A stretch of DNA of 64,000 nucleotides, from contig JAOADJ010000008.1 of assembly GCA_026417375.1 (NCBI GenBank), forward strand, positions 96,640-160,639. The letters run 5' to 3'. The stretch is from Melioribacteraceae bacterium. GTDB lineage: Bacteria > Bacteroidota > Ignavibacteria > Ignavibacteriales > Melioribacteraceae. Position 1 is the first letter of the stretch; each line of letters starts with the position of its first letter. The position numbers and the translations under genes are program-made. The notes under the pieces were generated by a model. That model searched no databases. It saw only the letters and a program-made list of their open reading frames with translations, and was not told the DNA's origin. Below are positions 10,141 to 25,289 of this stretch, piece by piece.

Positions 10141-11865
10141 ATGAAATTTTTTCGTGGTGTGTTAATAATATTAACTTTAGCATTTCTGTTTTCTTGCGAT
10201 GCTCCTCATTCAAATCCTGCGGATCCACAAAATCCCAATAACAAATTTGCTCAAGTTGATGGTTATGTTTTAACTTATGAACAACCACGGGTTGCAATTT
10301 CTAATGTTAAAGTAGTTTGGAAAAATCAAAACATTTTAACTTATACAGATTCAACCGGATACTTTCGGATTCAGGATGTTCAGCGAATTGATGGTAAATT
10401 GATTTTTGAAAAAGATGGATATTCAAAAGATTCATCTGTTGTAAAATGGAATAACCAAAATACCAAAAGAATAGAAACTGTATTACTTTCTTTTACTTTT
10501 GGGGATTTAGATGGATTTGTTTTAACCAACGACCAACCACAACAACCAATTTCTAAAGTTAAAGTTTATTGGAAAAATGCGAATGTCATTGCTGAAACAA
10601 ATTCAAATGGTTATTTCAAAATTGAAAATGTTCCTATTAGAAGTGGAATGATTTATTTTGAAAAGGATGGTTTTAAATCGGATTCTCTTTTAGTTGAATG
10701 GACAACTCAAAAAACCAAGCGAATTGAAAATGTTTCATTAAAATATAATGTCGGAAGTATTGATGGTTTTGTTCAAACTTCTGATTTACCAAATCAACCA
10801 ATTAATAACGTAAAAGTTTTTTGGAAAAATCAAAATGTTTTTGCTACAACAAATTCAAACGGATATTTTAAGATTGACAACGTTCCGATAAAAAGTGGAA
10901 TGATTTATTTTGAAAAAGATGGTTTTAAGAAAGATTCTCTTTTTGTTAATTGGACTAATGAAAGAAGTAAAAGAATTTCAACTGTATTTTTAGATTACAC
11001 AATTGGCTCAATTAGTGGTTCAGTTTATACAATTGCTTTTCCACGTAAACCAATTTCAAAAACAAAAATTTATTGGAAAAACAACAACATAATAACAGAA
11101 ACAGATGCTTCGGGAAATTTTAGCATAAATAATATTCCAACTCAAAACGGTTTTATTTACTTTGATAAATCAGGTTATTCACCCGATTCTGCTTTTGTTA
11201 ATTGGGGTGGAAAAAACTCAGTTCGCGTAGAAAGTTTTTTAAACGCAAATCCACAATTGGATTCTCTTTCAATCTATACAATTGTTGAAAATCGTTATCC
11301 GGATATTCAGCGCTATCGTTTACAAATAAATGCAAAAATTTCCGATGCGGAAATAAATGATATTCAACTGGTTTATGTTAATAACAATAATTTAAAAATT
11401 AATTCTCAACTCATCTATAATAACGCAACAAGATTTTATGAGAGATTATTCGAACTATCAGATTTAAACATTGCTTCAATGGATGAAGCAATAGGTGAAA
11501 ATTTTAATATTATTGTTCGTGACCAATCATCAAAATTATTTAATGTCGGTTCTTCTACTATTAAAAGAATTATCCGTCAGGAAGTTGTAATTGAAAGTCC
11601 AATTGATAGATCAACAACAACATCAAAACCAACTTTAAAATGGAAAAGATATTTACCCGGTTTTAATTTCAAATATTTAATTCAGATCTACACAGATGAA
11701 GTTTCTCCAATATTAATTTGGCAAAAAGAAAATGTTTCTAAAGATGAAATCGAAATAACTCCAAATATAAATTTACCTATTGGAGATTACTTCTGGGTTA
11801 TTTGGGTTATAGATGATTTTGGTGATCGTTGCAGAACCAAACCAGCAACATTTACAGTGAAATAA
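10141..11865 (+). CDS. Lipoprotein with four tandem carboxypeptidase-regulatory-like (CnaB-type) beta-sandwich repeats
   Basis: Lipobox LFSC; four 84-aa repeats at an exact 252-nt period (10258, 10510, 10762, 11014), each DG.V...PI..VKV.WKN....T.S.GYF.I..V......FEK.G...DS. Confidence 0.8.
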   Translation: MKFFRGVLIILTLAFLFSCDAPHSNPADPQNPNNKFAQVDGYVLTYEQPRVAISNVKVVWKNQNILTYTDSTGYFRIQDVQRIDGKLIFEKDGYSKDSSVVKWNNQNTKRIETVLLSFTFGDLDGFVLTNDQPQQPISKVKVYWKNANVIAETNSNGYFKIENVPIRSGMIYFEKDGFKSDSLLVEWTTQKTKRIENVSLKYNVGSIDGFVQTSDLPNQPINNVKVFWKNQNVFATTNSNGYFKIDNVPIKSGMIYFEKDGFKKDSLFVNWTNERSKRISTVFLDYTIGSISGSVYTIAFPRKPISKTKIYWKNNNIITETDASGNFSINNIPTQNGFIYFDKSGYSPDSAFVNWGGKNSVRVESFLNANPQLDSLSIYTIVENRYPDIQRYRLQINAKISDAEINDIQLVYVNNNNLKINSQLIYNNATRFYERLFELSDLNIASMDEAIGENFNIIVRDQSSKLFNVGSSTIKRIIRQEVVIESPIDRSTTTSKPTLKWKRYLPGFNFKYLIQIYTDEVSPILIWQKENVSKDEIEITPNINLPIGDYFWVIWVIDDFGDRCRTKPATFTVK

Positions 11866-11869
11866 TTTT

Positions 11870-13360
11870 ATGAAAAACTTTTTTGTTGAAAATATTAATC
11901 ACATAAAAAATTTATCCAAAAATGAATTCGAATCGTTATATGAATTCACTCAAATGTTAAATACAGCAAGTGGGGAAGAAACTTTAATTGAAGATGCGAT
12001 GGATATTGTAATTAATGTAATAAATGCTGAGCGTGGTTTGTTCGTAAAGTATGATGATAAAACAGATTCTTTTTCAATAATTAGTGCAAGAAAAATCTCT
12101 AACGAAAGCATTACCGATTTAAATGAATTTTCATCCGGCATTCTTCAAAAAGTTTTAAAAGAAAAAAAACCACTTCTTTATCACGATGTAATGAGTGACC
12201 CAAATTTATCACAATTTCAAAGTGTCCAAATTCACAGAATAAAATCTGTAATTGGTGTTCCTATTATTCGTGATGATAAAGTTTGGGGAATTATTATTGC
12301 AGATAGCCAACTTGACCGACGTGAATTTACAGATGAAAATCTTCTATTCCTGAATTTCTTTTCTAACTTAATTTCACTTGCATTAGATAGAATTATAAAA
12401 CTTCAAGAGCTTGAAAAAGAAAACAAAATTCTTTTCAATAAACTTCAATCTACTGAACAAATTCCGGAAATGATTGGCAACAGCCCTGTAATGAGAAATT
12501 TATCTCAACTTATTTATAAAGTTGCTCAAACCGATGCAACAGTGTTAATTACAGGAGAAAGTGGAACAGGTAAAGAAATTGCTGCAAGAGCAATTCATCA
12601 GTTAAGTAAAAGAAAAAACAAACCATACCTTGCACAATTTTGTGGTTCAATTCCGGATAACCTTCTTGAAAGTGAATTGTTCGGATATAAAAAAGGAGCA
12701 TTCACCGGCGCAAATACTGATAAGCAAGGATTACTGGAAGCTGCAGATCAAGGCACTTTTTTTCTTGATGAAATTGCTGATATTTCACAAGCGCTTCAGG
12801 CAAAACTATTACGTGTTTTAGAGAATAAAGAAATCATACGGCTTGGCGATGTAAAAGTTAAAAAAGTTGATGTAAGAATATTAGCCGCAACAAATAAAGA
12901 TCTTCAACAATTAGTTAAAGAAGGTACTTTCCGCGAAGATTTATTTTATCGTTTAAATGTTTTCCCAATTAAAATGCCACCTCTTCGTGAAAGAAGAGAT
13001 GATATTCCATTGCTTGCAAGTCACTTTGTTAAAAAAATTTCTGGAAAAGATATTTCAATTGATACTTCTGCAATTAAAAAATTAGAAAGTTATTATTGGC
13101 CCGGAAACATCCGACAATTAATTAATGTAATTCAAAGAGCTATTATTCTTTGCGATACCAATAAAATATATGCTGAACAAATTATACTTGAAGATGAACA
13201 AAGTTTAGAAAATTTCAACGGCACACTCGAAGAATTTGAAATTCTTTTACTTAAAAAAAGATTGGAACAGTTTAACGGTAATAGAACTTTAACAGCAAAA
13301 TCTCTTGATGTTTCTGTAAGATGGATTCAACTAAAACTTAAAGAACTAGGCATTCAATGA
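11870..13360 (+). CDS. GAF-domain sigma-54 enhancer-binding protein (GAF-AAA+-Fis HTH)
   Basis: N-terminal GAF; Walker A GESGTGKE; GAFTGA; Walker B FLDEI; FREDLFYRLNV; WPGNIRQL; HTH FNGNRTLTAKSLDVS. No receiver domain. Confidence 0.95.
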   Translation: MKNFFVENINHIKNLSKNEFESLYEFTQMLNTASGEETLIEDAMDIVINVINAERGLFVKYDDKTDSFSIISARKISNESITDLNEFSSGILQKVLKEKKPLLYHDVMSDPNLSQFQSVQIHRIKSVIGVPIIRDDKVWGIIIADSQLDRREFTDENLLFLNFFSNLISLALDRIIKLQELEKENKILFNKLQSTEQIPEMIGNSPVMRNLSQLIYKVAQTDATVLITGESGTGKEIAARAIHQLSKRKNKPYLAQFCGSIPDNLLESELFGYKKGAFTGANTDKQGLLEAADQGTFFLDEIADISQALQAKLLRVLENKEIIRLGDVKVKKVDVRILAATNKDLQQLVKEGTFREDLFYRLNVFPIKMPPLRERRDDIPLLASHFVKKISGKDISIDTSAIKKLESYYWPGNIRQLINVIQRAIILCDTNKIYAEQIILEDEQSLENFNGTLEEFEILLLKKRLEQFNGNRTLTAKSLDVSVRWIQLKLKELGIQ

Positions 13361-19823: not shown

Positions 19824-20699
19824 TCAAAACAGAGAAAGTAATCTTTTGTGTTTGACAAAATAAATGATTGTCATAATCAGATAAGTAAAAACAAAATTAA
19901 TTAAAGAGATAAAAAGGGAATAAACAAACATACCATTAAATAATATCGTATAACTATTAATTTTATATAATTGATTTGAAAAATTTACACCCAAATAAAT
20001 TGTAACCAAATTTAAAATGAACAAAATCATAACAATGAAAAACAAACCAAAGAGCATTCCTTTAATATCCGGGGGACTTAATTGCATATGAGAACTTATA
20101 CAAAGGGAAATGTATAAGAAAATAAAAAAATATACTGATGTAAAATTTGAAGAAGTAAATAAAAATTTAACCAGCATATTTCCTATAGAAAATAAATTTT
20201 CAACATTGGCAAAAATATTTTTGATACTAAGGTTTTGAATTGAGTTTGCAGAAAGAAGATTTGAAATTTGATTTTGATTAGGCACTAAAAAGTACATCAA
20301 CACATATAAAACAAAAGAACCAAATATTATTGGTCCTGCACCGATAAAAAAATTACCAATAATTTGATAATAACTATTTTTGTTGTAACTGTGATTAACA
20401 TATCCAAGAGTTCCATCAAAAGAGTTTATTTGAAATAATTTCATTTCGTTTATTTTATGTCGGAATATTAAACAAAAAATTGCGTGACCAATTTCATGAA
20501 CAGGAACTCCAATCCAACCTGTCAAATAAATATCAAGTTTATAATAACCAGAATTAACAAAAACTTTTCTTGTTAATTTCGAAATAAAAAATAATAACAA
20601 CCCAAAAAGAAAAAACAAACCAAGCAAGCTTACAATTTGGTTAAAAGTAATTAAAGCTACTTTAAATAAGTATTCAAGAATTTTAAAAATTGAATTCAT
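19824..20699 (-). CDS. Integral membrane protein with HEXXH motif (M50-like metallopeptidase)
   Basis: GVPVHEIGHA in a TM context, GYVNH, FFIGAGP, LSPPD. Confidence 0.6.
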   Translation of the reverse strand: MNSIFKILEYLFKVALITFNQIVSLLGLFFLFGLLLFFISKLTRKVFVNSGYYKLDIYLTGWIGVPVHEIGHAIFCLIFRHKINEMKLFQINSFDGTLGYVNHSYNKNSYYQIIGNFFIGAGPIIFGSFVLYVLMYFLVPNQNQISNLLSANSIQNLSIKNIFANVENLFSIGNMLVKFLFTSSNFTSVYFFIFLYISLCISSHMQLSPPDIKGMLFGLFFIVMILFILNLVTIYLGVNFSNQLYKINSYTILFNGMFVYSLFISLINFVFTYLIMTIIYFVKHKRLLSLF

Positions 20700-22522: not shown

Positions 22523-22945
22523 TTATTTAACCTTCTTTATCGTTAATTCAGCAGATACAAATGGTGGAGCTGATTTAGTTGTACCACTTGCATAAATATT
22601 ATCATTGTCTCCACGTTTAATAGTAAGGATTGTTTCATCTAATCCAAATTCAGGTAAATGAATGATTATTTTATTTTCTGATAGATTTTTATTCTCTATG
22701 ACTTTTAAAGAGAATTCCTTTCTACCAAATCCAATTACATTATAATTTGCTGTGAGTTTCTCGAAATCAATTTCTATAAATCCACTGGCGTTATTTGATC
22801 TCCATTTGTTATTAGAAAATTCTGATATTGTTAAGGTTCCGCTCCAGATACCTTTTAATTTATTTTGACAATACAACTGCGATGAGAATTGTATAACAAA
22901 TAAAATTGTCAATAAAGAAATCCTAACTATTATTTTTGATGTCAT
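22523..22945 (-). CDS. Hypothetical secreted protein (last cassette; no downstream attC seen)
   Basis: Begins 26 nt after R' GTTAGGC with SD AGGAGG; signal-peptide-like N-terminus. Confidence 0.75.
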   Translation of the reverse strand: MTSKIIVRISLLTILFVIQFSSQLYCQNKLKGIWSGTLTISEFSNNKWRSNNASGFIEIDFEKLTANYNVIGFGRKEFSLKVIENKNLSENKIIIHLPEFGLDETILTIKRGDNDNIYASGTTKSAPPFVSAELTIKKVK

Positions 22946-22971
22946 TTTATCCTCCTTGTAAAATATTAATT

Positions 22972-23160
22972 GCCTAACGGCGTTGTTTTTAAGCGGACAC
23001 CAAAAGGTTTCCGCTACAAATACAACGACTTATTGTTTATGTTTTTCTTTACTTCCTTTATTTAATTATCCCTACAATTGTAAACTACAAATACCTCGTC
23101 CGACGGAATTTATCCTGCAGTATTTTTGCGGGAGCGTTCCGCTTGATACGTTGGTTATAA
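22972..23160 (-). other. attC site, 189 bp
   Basis: Minus strand: R'' TTATAAC containing the upstream gene's TAA stop, CAACG, TATCAAGCGGA ... TCCGCTTAAAAAC, AACGCC, R' GTTAGGC. AAGCGGA/TCCGCTT pair, with an unpaired C in the left arm. Confidence 0.8.
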
Positions 23161-23741
23161 ACCATTTTTATAAAATGAAATTAACTCCTTATTAATTACT
23201 TTTATTTTCTTTTCGATTTGCCAACGAATCGGATGTTTAGATTTTATAGAAAGATTTATTTCGGGAACATTTGAATAAATTGATTTTATTTTTTGAATTC
23301 TGCTTTCGATTAAACCCATGTATTTTTTGTCTTCATCTATATTTCCAAACGCATATAAAATTCCGTAAATATCGAATGACAGTAGCTTTTCATATACTAA
23401 CAATTTATAATCACGTAAATCCCAGTTTGCAAAAAGCAAATGTCGTTTTGGAGTAGCATAATCAAAAAGATTAATAACCAATGGATTTAAACCTGAATTT
23501 ATAAAAGCATAACGTAATATTCTAAGTGTAGTATCTTTAGAAAGGTTTGCACCATCAAATGATAAGGAACCGGGATTGAATAATACAACTAAAACCAATT
23601 TTTTATTTTGGGGATGCTTCTGTAAACACCAATGTCGGTAATTATCATTACTTTCCCAAAAGATTTCCCAGTTATCATATGATCTTTCGTAGACATAACC
23701 GTTTAATAGTGAATTGATAATACACCTCTAAAATTTTTCAT
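23155..23741 (-). pseudogene. DUF1643-like cassette gene with a damaged 5' end
   Basis: Frame open from 23727 (..YRHWCLQKHPQNKKLVLVVLFNPGS...DTTLRIL...VINLFDYATP) with no in-frame ATG upstream of the TTG at 23598; the nearest upstream ATG (23741) is out of frame and stops after 12 codons. Confidence 0.55.
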
Positions 23742-23759
23742 AAACCATTTTCGGAATTA

Positions 23760-24341
23760 TTAATATTCTCTCCACAAACAATAATAAACGGGTGTCCCAT
23801 AACGGAAATTTACTTCACCATCGCTTATTCGTGTTTCTCCAGGAGCTATACTTGAAAAAACATAAATATCAGAATATTCTGAGGTAATAAAACCGTTTTC
23901 ATTTAGAAAATAAATTTTAAAGTTTGGTTTAATGCTTTGACTGCCATTATTTTGAATTGTTACAAATATTTTATTTCCGTCTATTCTAAATTTCTTTATA
24001 GCAAAATCATTAAAGTAATTATCCCCTCCACTAAATCTGTATAAATTGTTATAGTAATTCTGAAGCTTTTTTTCTTCCCTTGCAATAAGGTTGCTATAAA
24101 TATTTTTTAATGAATCTGCTTGTTTTATTTTAACTTCCGCTTCTCTGGCTGCATCTTCAATTTTCTTCTTAGCGATAATTTCTGCATCTACCAACTTTTG
24201 TTCACTTTCTTGTTTTAACTTGTCAAAATTTCCATTTATAGAGTCAAGTTGTTTTTCTGTATTATACCACTTTAATGCAGAACCAATTAACAATATGAGA
24301 AGAATTAAACTAATGAACTTGAAAATATCTTTCTTTTCCAT
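23760..24341 (-). CDS. Membrane-anchored coiled-coil protein with C-terminal Ig-like domain (cassette gene)
   Basis: N-terminal TM helix, coiled coil, TIQNNG...KIYFLNENG...IAPGET; starts 18 nt after R' GTTATAA. Confidence 0.75.
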   Translation of the reverse strand: MEKKDIFKFISLILLILLIGSALKWYNTEKQLDSINGNFDKLKQESEQKLVDAEIIAKKKIEDAAREAEVKIKQADSLKNIYSNLIAREEKKLQNYYNNLYRFSGGDNYFNDFAIKKFRIDGNKIFVTIQNNGSQSIKPNFKIYFLNENGFITSEYSDIYVFSSIAPGETRISDGEVNFRYGTPVYYCLWREY

Positions 24342-24359
24342 TTTTAACTCATATTTGTT

Positions 24360-24570
24360 TTATAACAGCGTTGCAACTAAAGCGCCGCCCATAACAGAAA
24401 TGCAGCTTTGAAAAACTAGCGTCAATAATTTTATAAATTTATATTTATTGCAACTAACTTACAAAAAGTAACCAAGTTTTGTTATACCAACTTTATATTT
24501 ACTTCAAACGACCGTATCGAATTTATCCGCCTCTGGCGGAGAAGCGGTCGGGCTGAAGTGCGAGTTAGGT
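24360..24570 (-). other. attC site, 211 bp, atypical or hybrid
   Basis: Minus strand: R'' ACCTAAC (24570-24564), left arm TCGCACTTCAGCCCGACCGC; right end GCTTTAGTTGC-AACGCT-GTTATAA (24366-24360). The arms pair poorly with each other. An alternative R' GTTGGTA at 24491-24485 closes an 86-bp hairpin. Confidence 0.7.
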
Positions 24571-24585
24571 GTATTTTAAATAAAT

Positions 24586-24978
24586 TTAATAAAGCTTATT
24601 CCCACAGCTATTACAATATTTTGCATCTCTTGGATTTTCAACTGAACAATTATTACAAATCATTAATAATTTAGTCCCACAATTAGAACAATACTTCACA
24701 GCACCTTGATTCCAATAATTGCACTTCGGGCATTTGTTGTTATCGTCTTCTTTATCAATCACAAGATTAGTCCAATCTTTACTTTGAGTTTTATTTGAAA
24801 TTATTGAACCTCTGATTAAAAGAACTAAACTTACAATCATGGACATAATTGCAATGCCGAATTGTCCAGCTATCAGAAAAACAAAGAACATTCCAAATAA
24901 AATTGCCCCTATCAAATTCATTGATCCGCTAGATGTTCTTTCGCTTATTTTATTTTCTTTTTCTTCATTTGAATACAT
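24586..24978 (-). CDS. Membrane protein with double zinc-ribbon (first cassette gene)
   Basis: Two TM helices, then CPKC, CSNC, CNNC, CNSC motifs. Confidence 0.85.
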   Translation of the reverse strand: MYSNEEKENKISERTSSGSMNLIGAILFGMFFVFLIAGQFGIAIMSMIVSLVLLIRGSIISNKTQSKDWTNLVIDKEDDNNKCPKCNYWNQGAVKYCSNCGTKLLMICNNCSVENPRDAKYCNSCGNKLY

Positions 24979-24989
24979 AAATATTCTCC

Positions 24990-25025
24990 AAATACACCTA
25001 ACTATTATTTAACCCGCCAACAAAT
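24990..25025 (-). other. Candidate attI and first cassette junction
   Basis: Minus strand GGCGGGTTAAATAATAG/TTAGGTGTATTT; GTTAGGTGTATTT (25002-24990) is the exact reverse complement of AAATACACCTAAC (24576-24564) at the cassette's other end. Confidence 0.7.
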
Positions 25026-25039
25026 ATCATCCTCCGTAA

Positions 25040-25228
25040 TTATTTTCTCCAGAGTCCGATACGATTCCTAGCGTTTTGTTTTTTTTCTATTTCTTTCATA
25101 TTAATATTATAACGGAAAAATATTTTAAAACAAGTGAAATATTCTTCTGTCTTTTTGCTGTAGTGATTAACTAGTAGTTCTGTCCTTACAAGATCAAGTA
25201 GTTTTGGTTTTTCTGTTCTTAAGTCCAT
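25040..25228 (-). pseudogene. intI: Integron integrase N-terminal remnant
   Basis: MDLRTEKPKLLDLVRTELLVNHYSKKTEE matches the IntI N-terminus (KLLDxVRxxxRxxHYSxxTE); similarity ends after about 29 codons; no catalytic domain. Confidence 0.75.
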
Positions 25229-25260
25229 CTTTGAACTCAAGTCCCTCTGTAGTTATTTGC

Positions 25261-25289
25261 AACTTAATTTTTTGAAATATTTTTGTCAA
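25261..25289 (-). promoter_or_regulatory. Candidate integrase promoter
   Basis: TTGACA (25289-25284), 17-bp spacer, TAAGTT (25266-25261), upstream of SD-like GAGGG and the ATG at 25228. Confidence 0.5.

Follow-up and report, generated by a model that had tools for sequence, protein, structure and literature searches.

Sedentary integron arrays can persist after decay of their integrase, as in the chromosomal integrons of Xanthomonas, where the integrase gene (intI) is divergent from the array and has been inactivated mostly by point mutations, frameshifts, and insertion sequences. We analyse a persisting array in a 64,000-nt stretch of DNA from a Melioribacteraceae bacterium (hereafter, the window). 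In contrast to the Xanthomonas case, intI appears to have been cut out internally, leaving a fusion of promoter and attI, and this platform is present in more than one copy. All of the structural features of an integron that can be tested here are present (an attI, attC sites, cassette boundaries, and a remnant homologous to IntI), except the integrase gene itself. We read the locus as a degenerate sedentary chromosomal integron of the co-oriented type, with intI cut internally to 29 codons and the array fixed, and give this reading a probability of about 0.88.

Clusters of attC sites lacking integron integrases (CALINs) are defined by at least two attC sites with no integron integrase nearby, and loss of intI is one proposed origin for them (Cury et al. 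2016, PMC4889954). The window locus fits this definition, with attC sites 1.2 kb apart and no intact intI in the genome. Like CALINs and degenerate sedentary integrons, it is an attC-bounded cassette cluster without a functional integrase nearby; unlike CALINs, it keeps a recognisable attI, a promoter region, and an N-terminal intI stub, and the attC sites of its clade measure 170 to 240 nt. Of 279 CALINs, Cury et al. found only 15 to have a nearby pseudogene with the IntI C-terminal domain (PMC4889954). Their test would miss the window stub, because it seeks the C-terminal domain and the stub is N-terminal.

Co-oriented integrons are known from Treponema denticola (PMC3607928) and from other phyla; the group is discussed, and found paraphyletic, in PMC4889954. 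The initial annotation of the locus had rightly cited this inverted-integrase arrangement. As in the Treponema denticola type, intI is transcribed toward attI and the cassettes, and attI lies downstream of the 3' end of intI. The differences are the host phylum (Ignavibacteriota) and the deletion of intI, and the likeness described here is one of layout. Integrons have been reported in Ignavibacteriota by IntegronFinder 2.0; we found no description of a co-oriented architecture in this phylum in the literature. The decay of an integron is of a known and ordinary kind, and the host phylum is little studied.

The genome of the window organism is a 2.8-Mb assembly of 58 contigs, 99% complete, from the same GTDB genus (Melioribacteraceae, Ignavibacteriota) as Stygiobacter electus 09-Me (G005). 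We scanned 41 genomes of relatives for intI and attI motifs, and DNA synteny was compared across 13 same-genus genomes. Contigs of the window organism's own genome are designated C35, C16, C13, and C53; G numbers denote genomes of relatives, and L numbers denote inspected loci or contigs.

Every feature of the stub platform and array reads on the minus strand. The intI stub (25228-25142) begins with ATG at 25228 and comprises 29 codons, MDLRTEKPKLLDLVRTELLVNHYSKKTEE. The initial annotation took these codons for the N-terminus of IntI, and comparison with relatives bears this out. The stub protein is 79% identical over 28 aa to the IntI of a same-genus relative (G002; 435 bits on TIGR02249), and the DNA of 25210-25142 is 78% to 83% identical to the 5' ends of full-length intI genes. 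Matches to TIGR02249 at 400 to 470 bits occur in 19 of the 41 relatives, and the N-termini of those proteins read ...KPKLLDLVRTELRVNHYSKKTEEAYVGWIKRF... A profile hidden Markov model (HMM) built from 11 IntI N-termini, a check that the annotation had proposed, matches the organism's own genome at two stubs only, one in the window (E=1e-9, 40.7 bits) and one elsewhere (E=1e-10). The genome's Xer-like genes do not match this profile, and no better resemblance of the stub to XerC/D or phage integrases emerged. A tblastn search of the genome with full-length IntI returned the Xer-like genes and two short pieces only: IntI residues 31-58 at the window stub (79%) and residues 30-64 at C35:204560-204664. 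By these comparisons, the stub is the N-terminus of an integron integrase, not of XerC/D or a phage integrase. Its reading frame continues past codon 29 through unrelated sequence to a stop at 25042-25040, giving 62 aa from the ATG or 66 from an upstream TTG; this out-of-context tail (25141-25040) lies over the retained spacer between intI and attI.

The attI site spans 36 nt (25031-24996), GATGATATTTGTTGGCGGGTTAAATAATAGTTAGGT, and can be written GATGATATTTGTTGGCGGGTTAAATAATA|GTTAGGT, with the core GTTAGGT at 25002-24996. The crossover is predicted between G25002 and T25001, and the first cassette starts at GTT. This is the "type A" version of the site, GGCGGGTTAAATAATAGTTA, 89% to 100% identical to sites that lie 100 to 150 nt downstream of intact intI in G005 and G040. 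The motif is specific, in that a reversed-pattern control yields approximately zero matches per genome. The right half of the window spacer aligns with the spacer downstream of the intact intI of G005 (AACAAAACGCT...). In all intact relatives inspected, a same-strand spacer of 100 to 190 nt follows intI and ends in ...(A/T)(A/G)TAATA|GTTA, where the first cassette begins. Stub and cassettes share the minus strand in the window, as first observed, and co-orientation, with attI downstream of the intI stop, is the norm in the clade. The distance from the end of the stub to the attI core is 140 nt, in agreement with the original estimate of about 140 bp. A third attI-like motif in the genome, at C53:21516, lacks both a leader and attC sites and was taken as chance.

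Between these flanks, approximately 0.9 kb of intI is absent, from codon 30 to about the stop, and the native intI-attI spacer is retained. Because intI is lost between flanks that are native on both sides, the loss is best described as an internal deletion, as had been proposed. Its right-hand end is not exact, because the approximately 30 nt that follow the stub (25141-25112) align with no intact relative. The stub is not an assembly error, since the identical sequence occurs in five independent metagenome contigs.

The array holds two cassettes. Cassette 1 (25001-24366) contains an open reading frame (ORF) at 24978-24586 (130 aa, membrane plus double zinc ribbon; Pfam DZR/Zn_Ribbon_1) and attC1, and it sits behind the same stub in five metagenome contigs. 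Its start, GTTAGGTGTATTT (25002-24990), pairs perfectly, at 13 of 13 nt, with AAATACACCTAAC (24576-24564), where its own attC begins. These are the 13-bp complementary ends that the annotation had noticed, and a repeat search extends the complementarity to 26 nt at 81%. Cassette 2 (24365-22978) contains an ORF at 24341-23760 (193 aa, function unassigned), a DUF1643 gene, and attC2; its start, GTTATAAA, is complementary at 8 of 8 nt to TTTATAAC of its own attC. PADLOC gave no defence match for the cassette and flank proteins.

The first attC site, attC1 (211 nt, 24570-24360), runs from R'' ACCTAAC (24570-24564) to R' GTTATAA (24366-24360), with pairing at 4 of 4 positions in the R core and 11 of 14 in the L box. 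The last of the array, attC2 (189 nt, 23160-22972), runs from R'' TTATAAC (23160-23154) to R' GTTAGGC (22978-22972), with 4 of 4 and 12 of 14. We tested both with half-site HMMs built from relatives, explicit pair counts, and covariation, searching the whole genome and, locally, the 4.9 kb around the locus. The 3' half of attC1 scores E=1.6e-7 genome-wide and 2.8e-10 locally, and its 5' half E=0.8 and 0.0014; the 3' half of attC2 scores E=4e-4 genome-wide and 7.4e-7 locally, and its 5' half E=0.018 locally. No attC halves besides these two 5' and two 3' ones occur in the 4.9 kb. The L-box counts compare with a mean of 11.3 in relatives, and none of 5000 random partners pairs as well.

Sites of relatives supply the model behind these scores. 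Their 5' half reads (C/T)(C/A)TAAC, about 5 nt, then ..TCAA.CCGACCGC, and their 3' half GTT.TGGGCGGCGG.TTA...GCAACGCCGTTA...; two bases left unpaired in the 5' arm, C and A, correspond on the bottom strand to the canonical extrahelical G and T. Among 24 relatives' sites, none of them from the organism's own genome, 83% of R- and L-box cells are paired, against 27% to 47% when the partner is slid by 1 to 3 columns, and 11 pairs show compensatory changes. Sites of this kind punctuate the arrays behind the relatives' intact intI. Judged by pairing and covariation, both window sites are real, unusually long attC sites. The clade's attC sites also have a conserved inner hairpin (GACCGC...GCGGTC) directly after L''. 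Owing to their length and weak overall folding, the sites escaped a generic scan for RYYYAAC...GTTRRRY with fold energy, which had no hits.

No gene in the organism's own genome exceeds the TIGR02249 cut-off of 265 bits; the best score, 85.6 bits, comes from the Xer-like genes. Apart from the two stubs, neither this profile nor tblastn detects any piece of intI in the 99%-complete assembly, and the search for an integrase acting in trans that the annotation had suggested therefore yields no intact intI. Because the genome encodes no intact integron integrase, the array is probably frozen, with cassettes no longer excisable or addable, and the annotation's description of it as such fits this absence.

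Several observations weigh against a degenerate integron with a fixed array. At 189 to 211 nt, the window attC sites exceed the classical range of 57 to 141 nt. The variable L-box positions of attC1 pair poorly, for which reason it may be a hybrid or eroded site. The assembly is fragmented into 58 contigs and two arrays run off contig ends (the end of C35 and the start of C16), so that an intact intI could lie on an unbinned contig. Finally, no relative preserves a full-length version of exactly this platform type from before the deletion: a family-wide DNA search for it returned only the two copies in the organism's own genome, and a metagenome scan with a 31-nt leader pattern added one further stub-bearing contig and no full-length gene.

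Among the alternatives, the one that survives best is a live satellite, in which promoter, stub, and attI still work together and the integrase is supplied in trans from unassembled DNA or incoming elements. Here, the relatives matter. Besides a single intact intI, the cultured S. electus carries at least 11 integrase-deleted platforms, each with an intact-looking attI and a different first cassette, and with attC downstream wherever sequence is available. Across the 41 genomes, two attI motifs give approximately 80 distinct matches, where about 11 are expected by chance (11 with the reversed-pattern control), against 21 intact intI genes; 16 of the matches were inspected. The window attI is well conserved, and arrays break the organism's own assembly. 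A live platform is nonetheless hard to reconcile with a 99%-complete genome that has only two stubs and no other intI fragment, with an attC1 that looks partly eroded, and with an array of just two cassettes that is identical in five metagenome contigs from different samples and shows no turnover. We consider it unlikely, and prefer the frozen array.

In the relatives, loss of intI takes several forms. S. electus has at least 7 copies of one stub-type platform, consisting of leader, approximately 22 to 30 degenerate codons, spacer, and attI; a weak 35-nt alignment hints that the S. electus stubs may share the same left break point (after KKTEE). On its contig C3, about 10 N-terminal codons are fused in frame to 34 C-terminal ones, C6 and C5 carry platforms from which the entire coding region is gone, and C45 carries a platform of another spacer type. 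Internal deletions elsewhere leave 72 codons plus the last 10 (G024), about 50 plus the last 45 (G014), and about 45 plus the last 12 (G156), and G127 has two or more copies of an integrase-deleted platform. In the complete genome G010, intI is absent and two attI remnants head attC arrays separated by 6.6 kb. Only a 3' remnant survives at G020:C1, and G015:C80 has a bare attI. Two N-terminal matches at contig ends of G020 were left out of the stub count. Retention of the N-terminus and attI is in part an ascertainment effect, because several of the platforms were found by searching with those parts. Far from being a one-off, the window remnant has a duplicate in its own genome, and the family has many other integrase-deleted platforms.

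Two side observations concern how platforms multiply. In S. electus, homology among platform copies (L190-L197, L053, L070) reaches far beyond the promoter on its upstream side, where the flanks fall into two alternative families with many palindromic repeats, and many of its contigs end near platform copies; the platforms may sit on a larger repeated or mobile unit. The complete chromosome of G030 carries a pair of intact intI genes in inverted orientation (C1:1543287-1544222, plus strand, and 2670026-2670961, minus strand), with the same score and the same attI motif, and duplication of whole platforms therefore also happens before intI is lost. A distributed integron offers a tentative account, which we regard as possible and less probable than not: platforms would multiply, all but one would lose intI through deletions tolerated or favoured for the promoter and attI that they keep, one integrase would serve them in trans, and the window locus would be a satellite orphaned when the last integrase was lost. 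If so, the integrons of Melioribacteraceae, and perhaps co-oriented integrons generally, would operate as a distributed system, with a dozen promoter-attI sites for docking and expression in S. electus 09-Me, and repeated platforms would also drive large chromosomal inversions.

The second copy in the window organism bears on both the history of the deletion and the status of the short ORF. This platform (C35:204473-204790, plus strand) lies outside the window, 83 kb away and in opposite orientation, and comprises promoter, leader, stub (MDLRLEKPKLLDFVRTKLRVNRYSKKTEED*), spacer, and attI (GATGATGTTAATCAGCGGATTTATTAATAGTTATAC). Its region, C35:204473-205965, corresponds to window coordinate ~107834 onward and adjoins a 431-aa permease gene. 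Downstream of its attI, a different cassette, which encodes a membrane protein, leads to an attC at 205290-205495; the cassette after that runs off the contig end. The two platforms are colinear from promoter to attI without large gaps, with approximately 97% identity in promoter and leader, 91% in the 29 codons, and about two-thirds in the spacer. Colinearity points to one ancestral deletion followed by duplication.

One might take the short ORF for a working small gene, for instance one encoding a leader peptide whose translation is coupled to that of the first cassette, as with ORF-11 in class 1 integrons. Promoter and leader are far better conserved between the copies than the spacer, and gene callers place a 62-aa gene there. 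The coding sequence speaks strongly against this idea. Between the copies, the 29 codons differ by 5 nonsynonymous and 2 synonymous codon changes, which indicates that the stub peptide is not under purifying selection; the tails are wholly different, with 33 more residues in one copy and a single residue before the stop in the other; and the stubs of relatives end at other codons. Recombination between the copies explains the high 5' identity better, and we regard a working leader peptide as very improbable. Weaker still, and already contradicted, is the notion that there is no integron at all, the repeats being terminators or REP-like elements and the stub the remnant of a Xer or phage tyrosine recombinase: it can point to repeats much longer than textbook attC, to an Rfam search without a match, and to the lack of any Pfam or NCBIfam match for the stub alone (which is too short), but the stub closely matches the N-termini of proteins that score above 400 bits on the integron-integrase model, the genome's Xer-like genes miss the IntI N-terminal profile, and the R''/L''/L'/R' architecture, covariation, and cassette-end complementarity are common to the arrays behind relatives' intact intI.

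For the degenerate integron, the following sequence of events is proposed. An ancestral co-oriented platform would have carried promoter, intI, attI, and cassettes on one strand. An internal deletion of about 0.9 kb would then have removed intI from codon 30 to about the stop codon, sparing the intI promoter and leader, 29 codons, the native spacer, attI, two cassettes with three ORFs, and two long attC sites. The deletion would precede duplication of the platform, whose second copy now heads a different array, and recombination between the copies would have produced two inversion isomers in natural populations.

Evidence for these isomers comes from gene order. In G005 and G002, the response-regulator gene is followed by a convergent PP2C-type gene, and a 291-aa gene, which here lies downstream of the window array, adjoins the 431-aa permease gene, which here flanks the second copy. 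By this synteny, the locus sits at a breakpoint. The junction of response regulator and first stub occurs in the organism's own genome and in metagenome contigs of three samples (L072-L074); a junction of permease and first stub occurs in L071 (ERZ511474) and L202 (Ga0101944_10034815), which come from two further samples, with crossovers at two points inside the shared leader. The latter isomer restores the permease...291-aa neighbourhood of the relatives. Because both flank arrangements of the first copy are seen in different samples, the junctions point to an 83-kb inversion polymorphism by recombination between the two inverted platforms. With the 83-kb segment apparently present in both orientations in nature, dead integron platforms would shape chromosome structure here.

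Expression of the stranded cassettes turns on the promoters that the deletion spared. The candidate intI promoter (25289-25261), read from the sequence, consists of TTGACA (25289-25284), 17 nt, and TAAGTT (25266-25261), and begins 23 nt past the stop codon of the response-regulator gene (25314-25312). The pattern TTGAC-N17/18-TAAGTTG is conserved upstream of full-length intI in G002, G005, and G040 and of all stub platforms, and it is kept across genera, including G040 from another family, while adjoining sequence varies; it is the best promoter candidate. Of the intact-looking promoter and ribosome site first described, the promoter motif is present and conserved, but the candidate ribosome site, GAGGG, is poorly spaced, ending about 15 nt before the stub ATG. 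A second proposal, an internal promoter in the tail of the stub ORF (25133-25106), is there as reported, with TTGTTT (25133-25128), 16 nt, and TATAAT (25111-25106), yet neither hexamer is conserved in an alignment with the second copy. A consensus promoter scanner lists neither candidate. It finds 10 promoter-like sites here against 18.6 in shuffles, and since this AT-rich DNA has fewer such sites than shuffles, consensus matches carry no weight here. The retained intI promoter now lies about 310 nt upstream of the start codon of the first cassette, and its transcription of the cassettes is plausible but unproven.

The locus shows directly one route to a CALIN, namely internal deletion of intI that spares attI and promoter. 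Many attC sites of the clade exceed the default size limit of IntegronFinder, 200 nt, and standard pipelines would miss such a locus because of this limit and because they seek the IntI C-terminal domain. Several genera show this outcome, with break points that differ, and it is multi-copy in a cultured relative with one intact integrase; this recurrence, together with the intact integrase of S. electus, makes it a testable proposition that one integrase serves many integrase-less attI sites. Of most interest are the many copies, across the family, of promoter-attI platforms that lack an integrase, the length of the attC sites (around 200 nt), and the probable inversion mediated by platforms.

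Within cassette 2, the DUF1643 frame (Pfam DUF1643, E=3.6e-5) is open from 23727 and ends at a stop at 23155, with its first canonical start a TTG at 23598. The frame is open for 43 codons before this TTG, and the Pfam match starts 11 residues before it. The motif AGAGGTG with ATT/ATC after it, at 23721-23716, points to a noncanonical start or to a gene truncated at its 5' end.

Elsewhere in the genome, the half-site search matches one site at C35:205290-205495, three sites on C16, and one 5' half on C13. The C16 sites belong to the distal end of another array (about 10650-12638, minus strand), which runs off the contig start; one of its three attC sites has R' mutated to GTAAGCT, and the product of one cassette was judged by eye to be TIR-like (DUF1863-type). 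Its terminal attC and attC2 are of one subtype.

The platform is preceded by a response-regulator gene (25701-25312, stop TAA at 25314-25312), for which a look-up by exact sequence returned no record. After the array, DNA specific to this genome (22971-20700) carries an ORF for a 140-aa protein with a signal peptide (22945-22523), a GATase_4 gene (22313-21552), and an ORF for a 219-aa lipoprotein-like protein (21486-20827), all on the minus strand and none attC-bounded. By extending the integron to 22523, the initial annotation implied a third cassette. The half-site profiles find no attC half-site in 22970-20500, and a plain hairpin follows the first of these ORFs, in place of the GCCTAAC predicted from its start; that ORF is not a demonstrable cassette, and the array consists of two cassettes only, with three ORFs. 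The three genes might still be eroded cassettes, though they have no attC half-sites and no homologues in relatives with inspectable context. The 13 same-genus genomes have no DNA counterpart of 25311-20700, the GATase_4 gene is absent from 150 genomes of the family, and synteny with G005 and G002 resumes at 20653. The first codons of the 140-aa ORF (22935-22922) hold an exact 14-nt copy of the attI core, AAATAATAGTTAGG (25010-24997), on the same strand; this could be a coincidence in AT-rich sequence or mark a secondary attI-like site.

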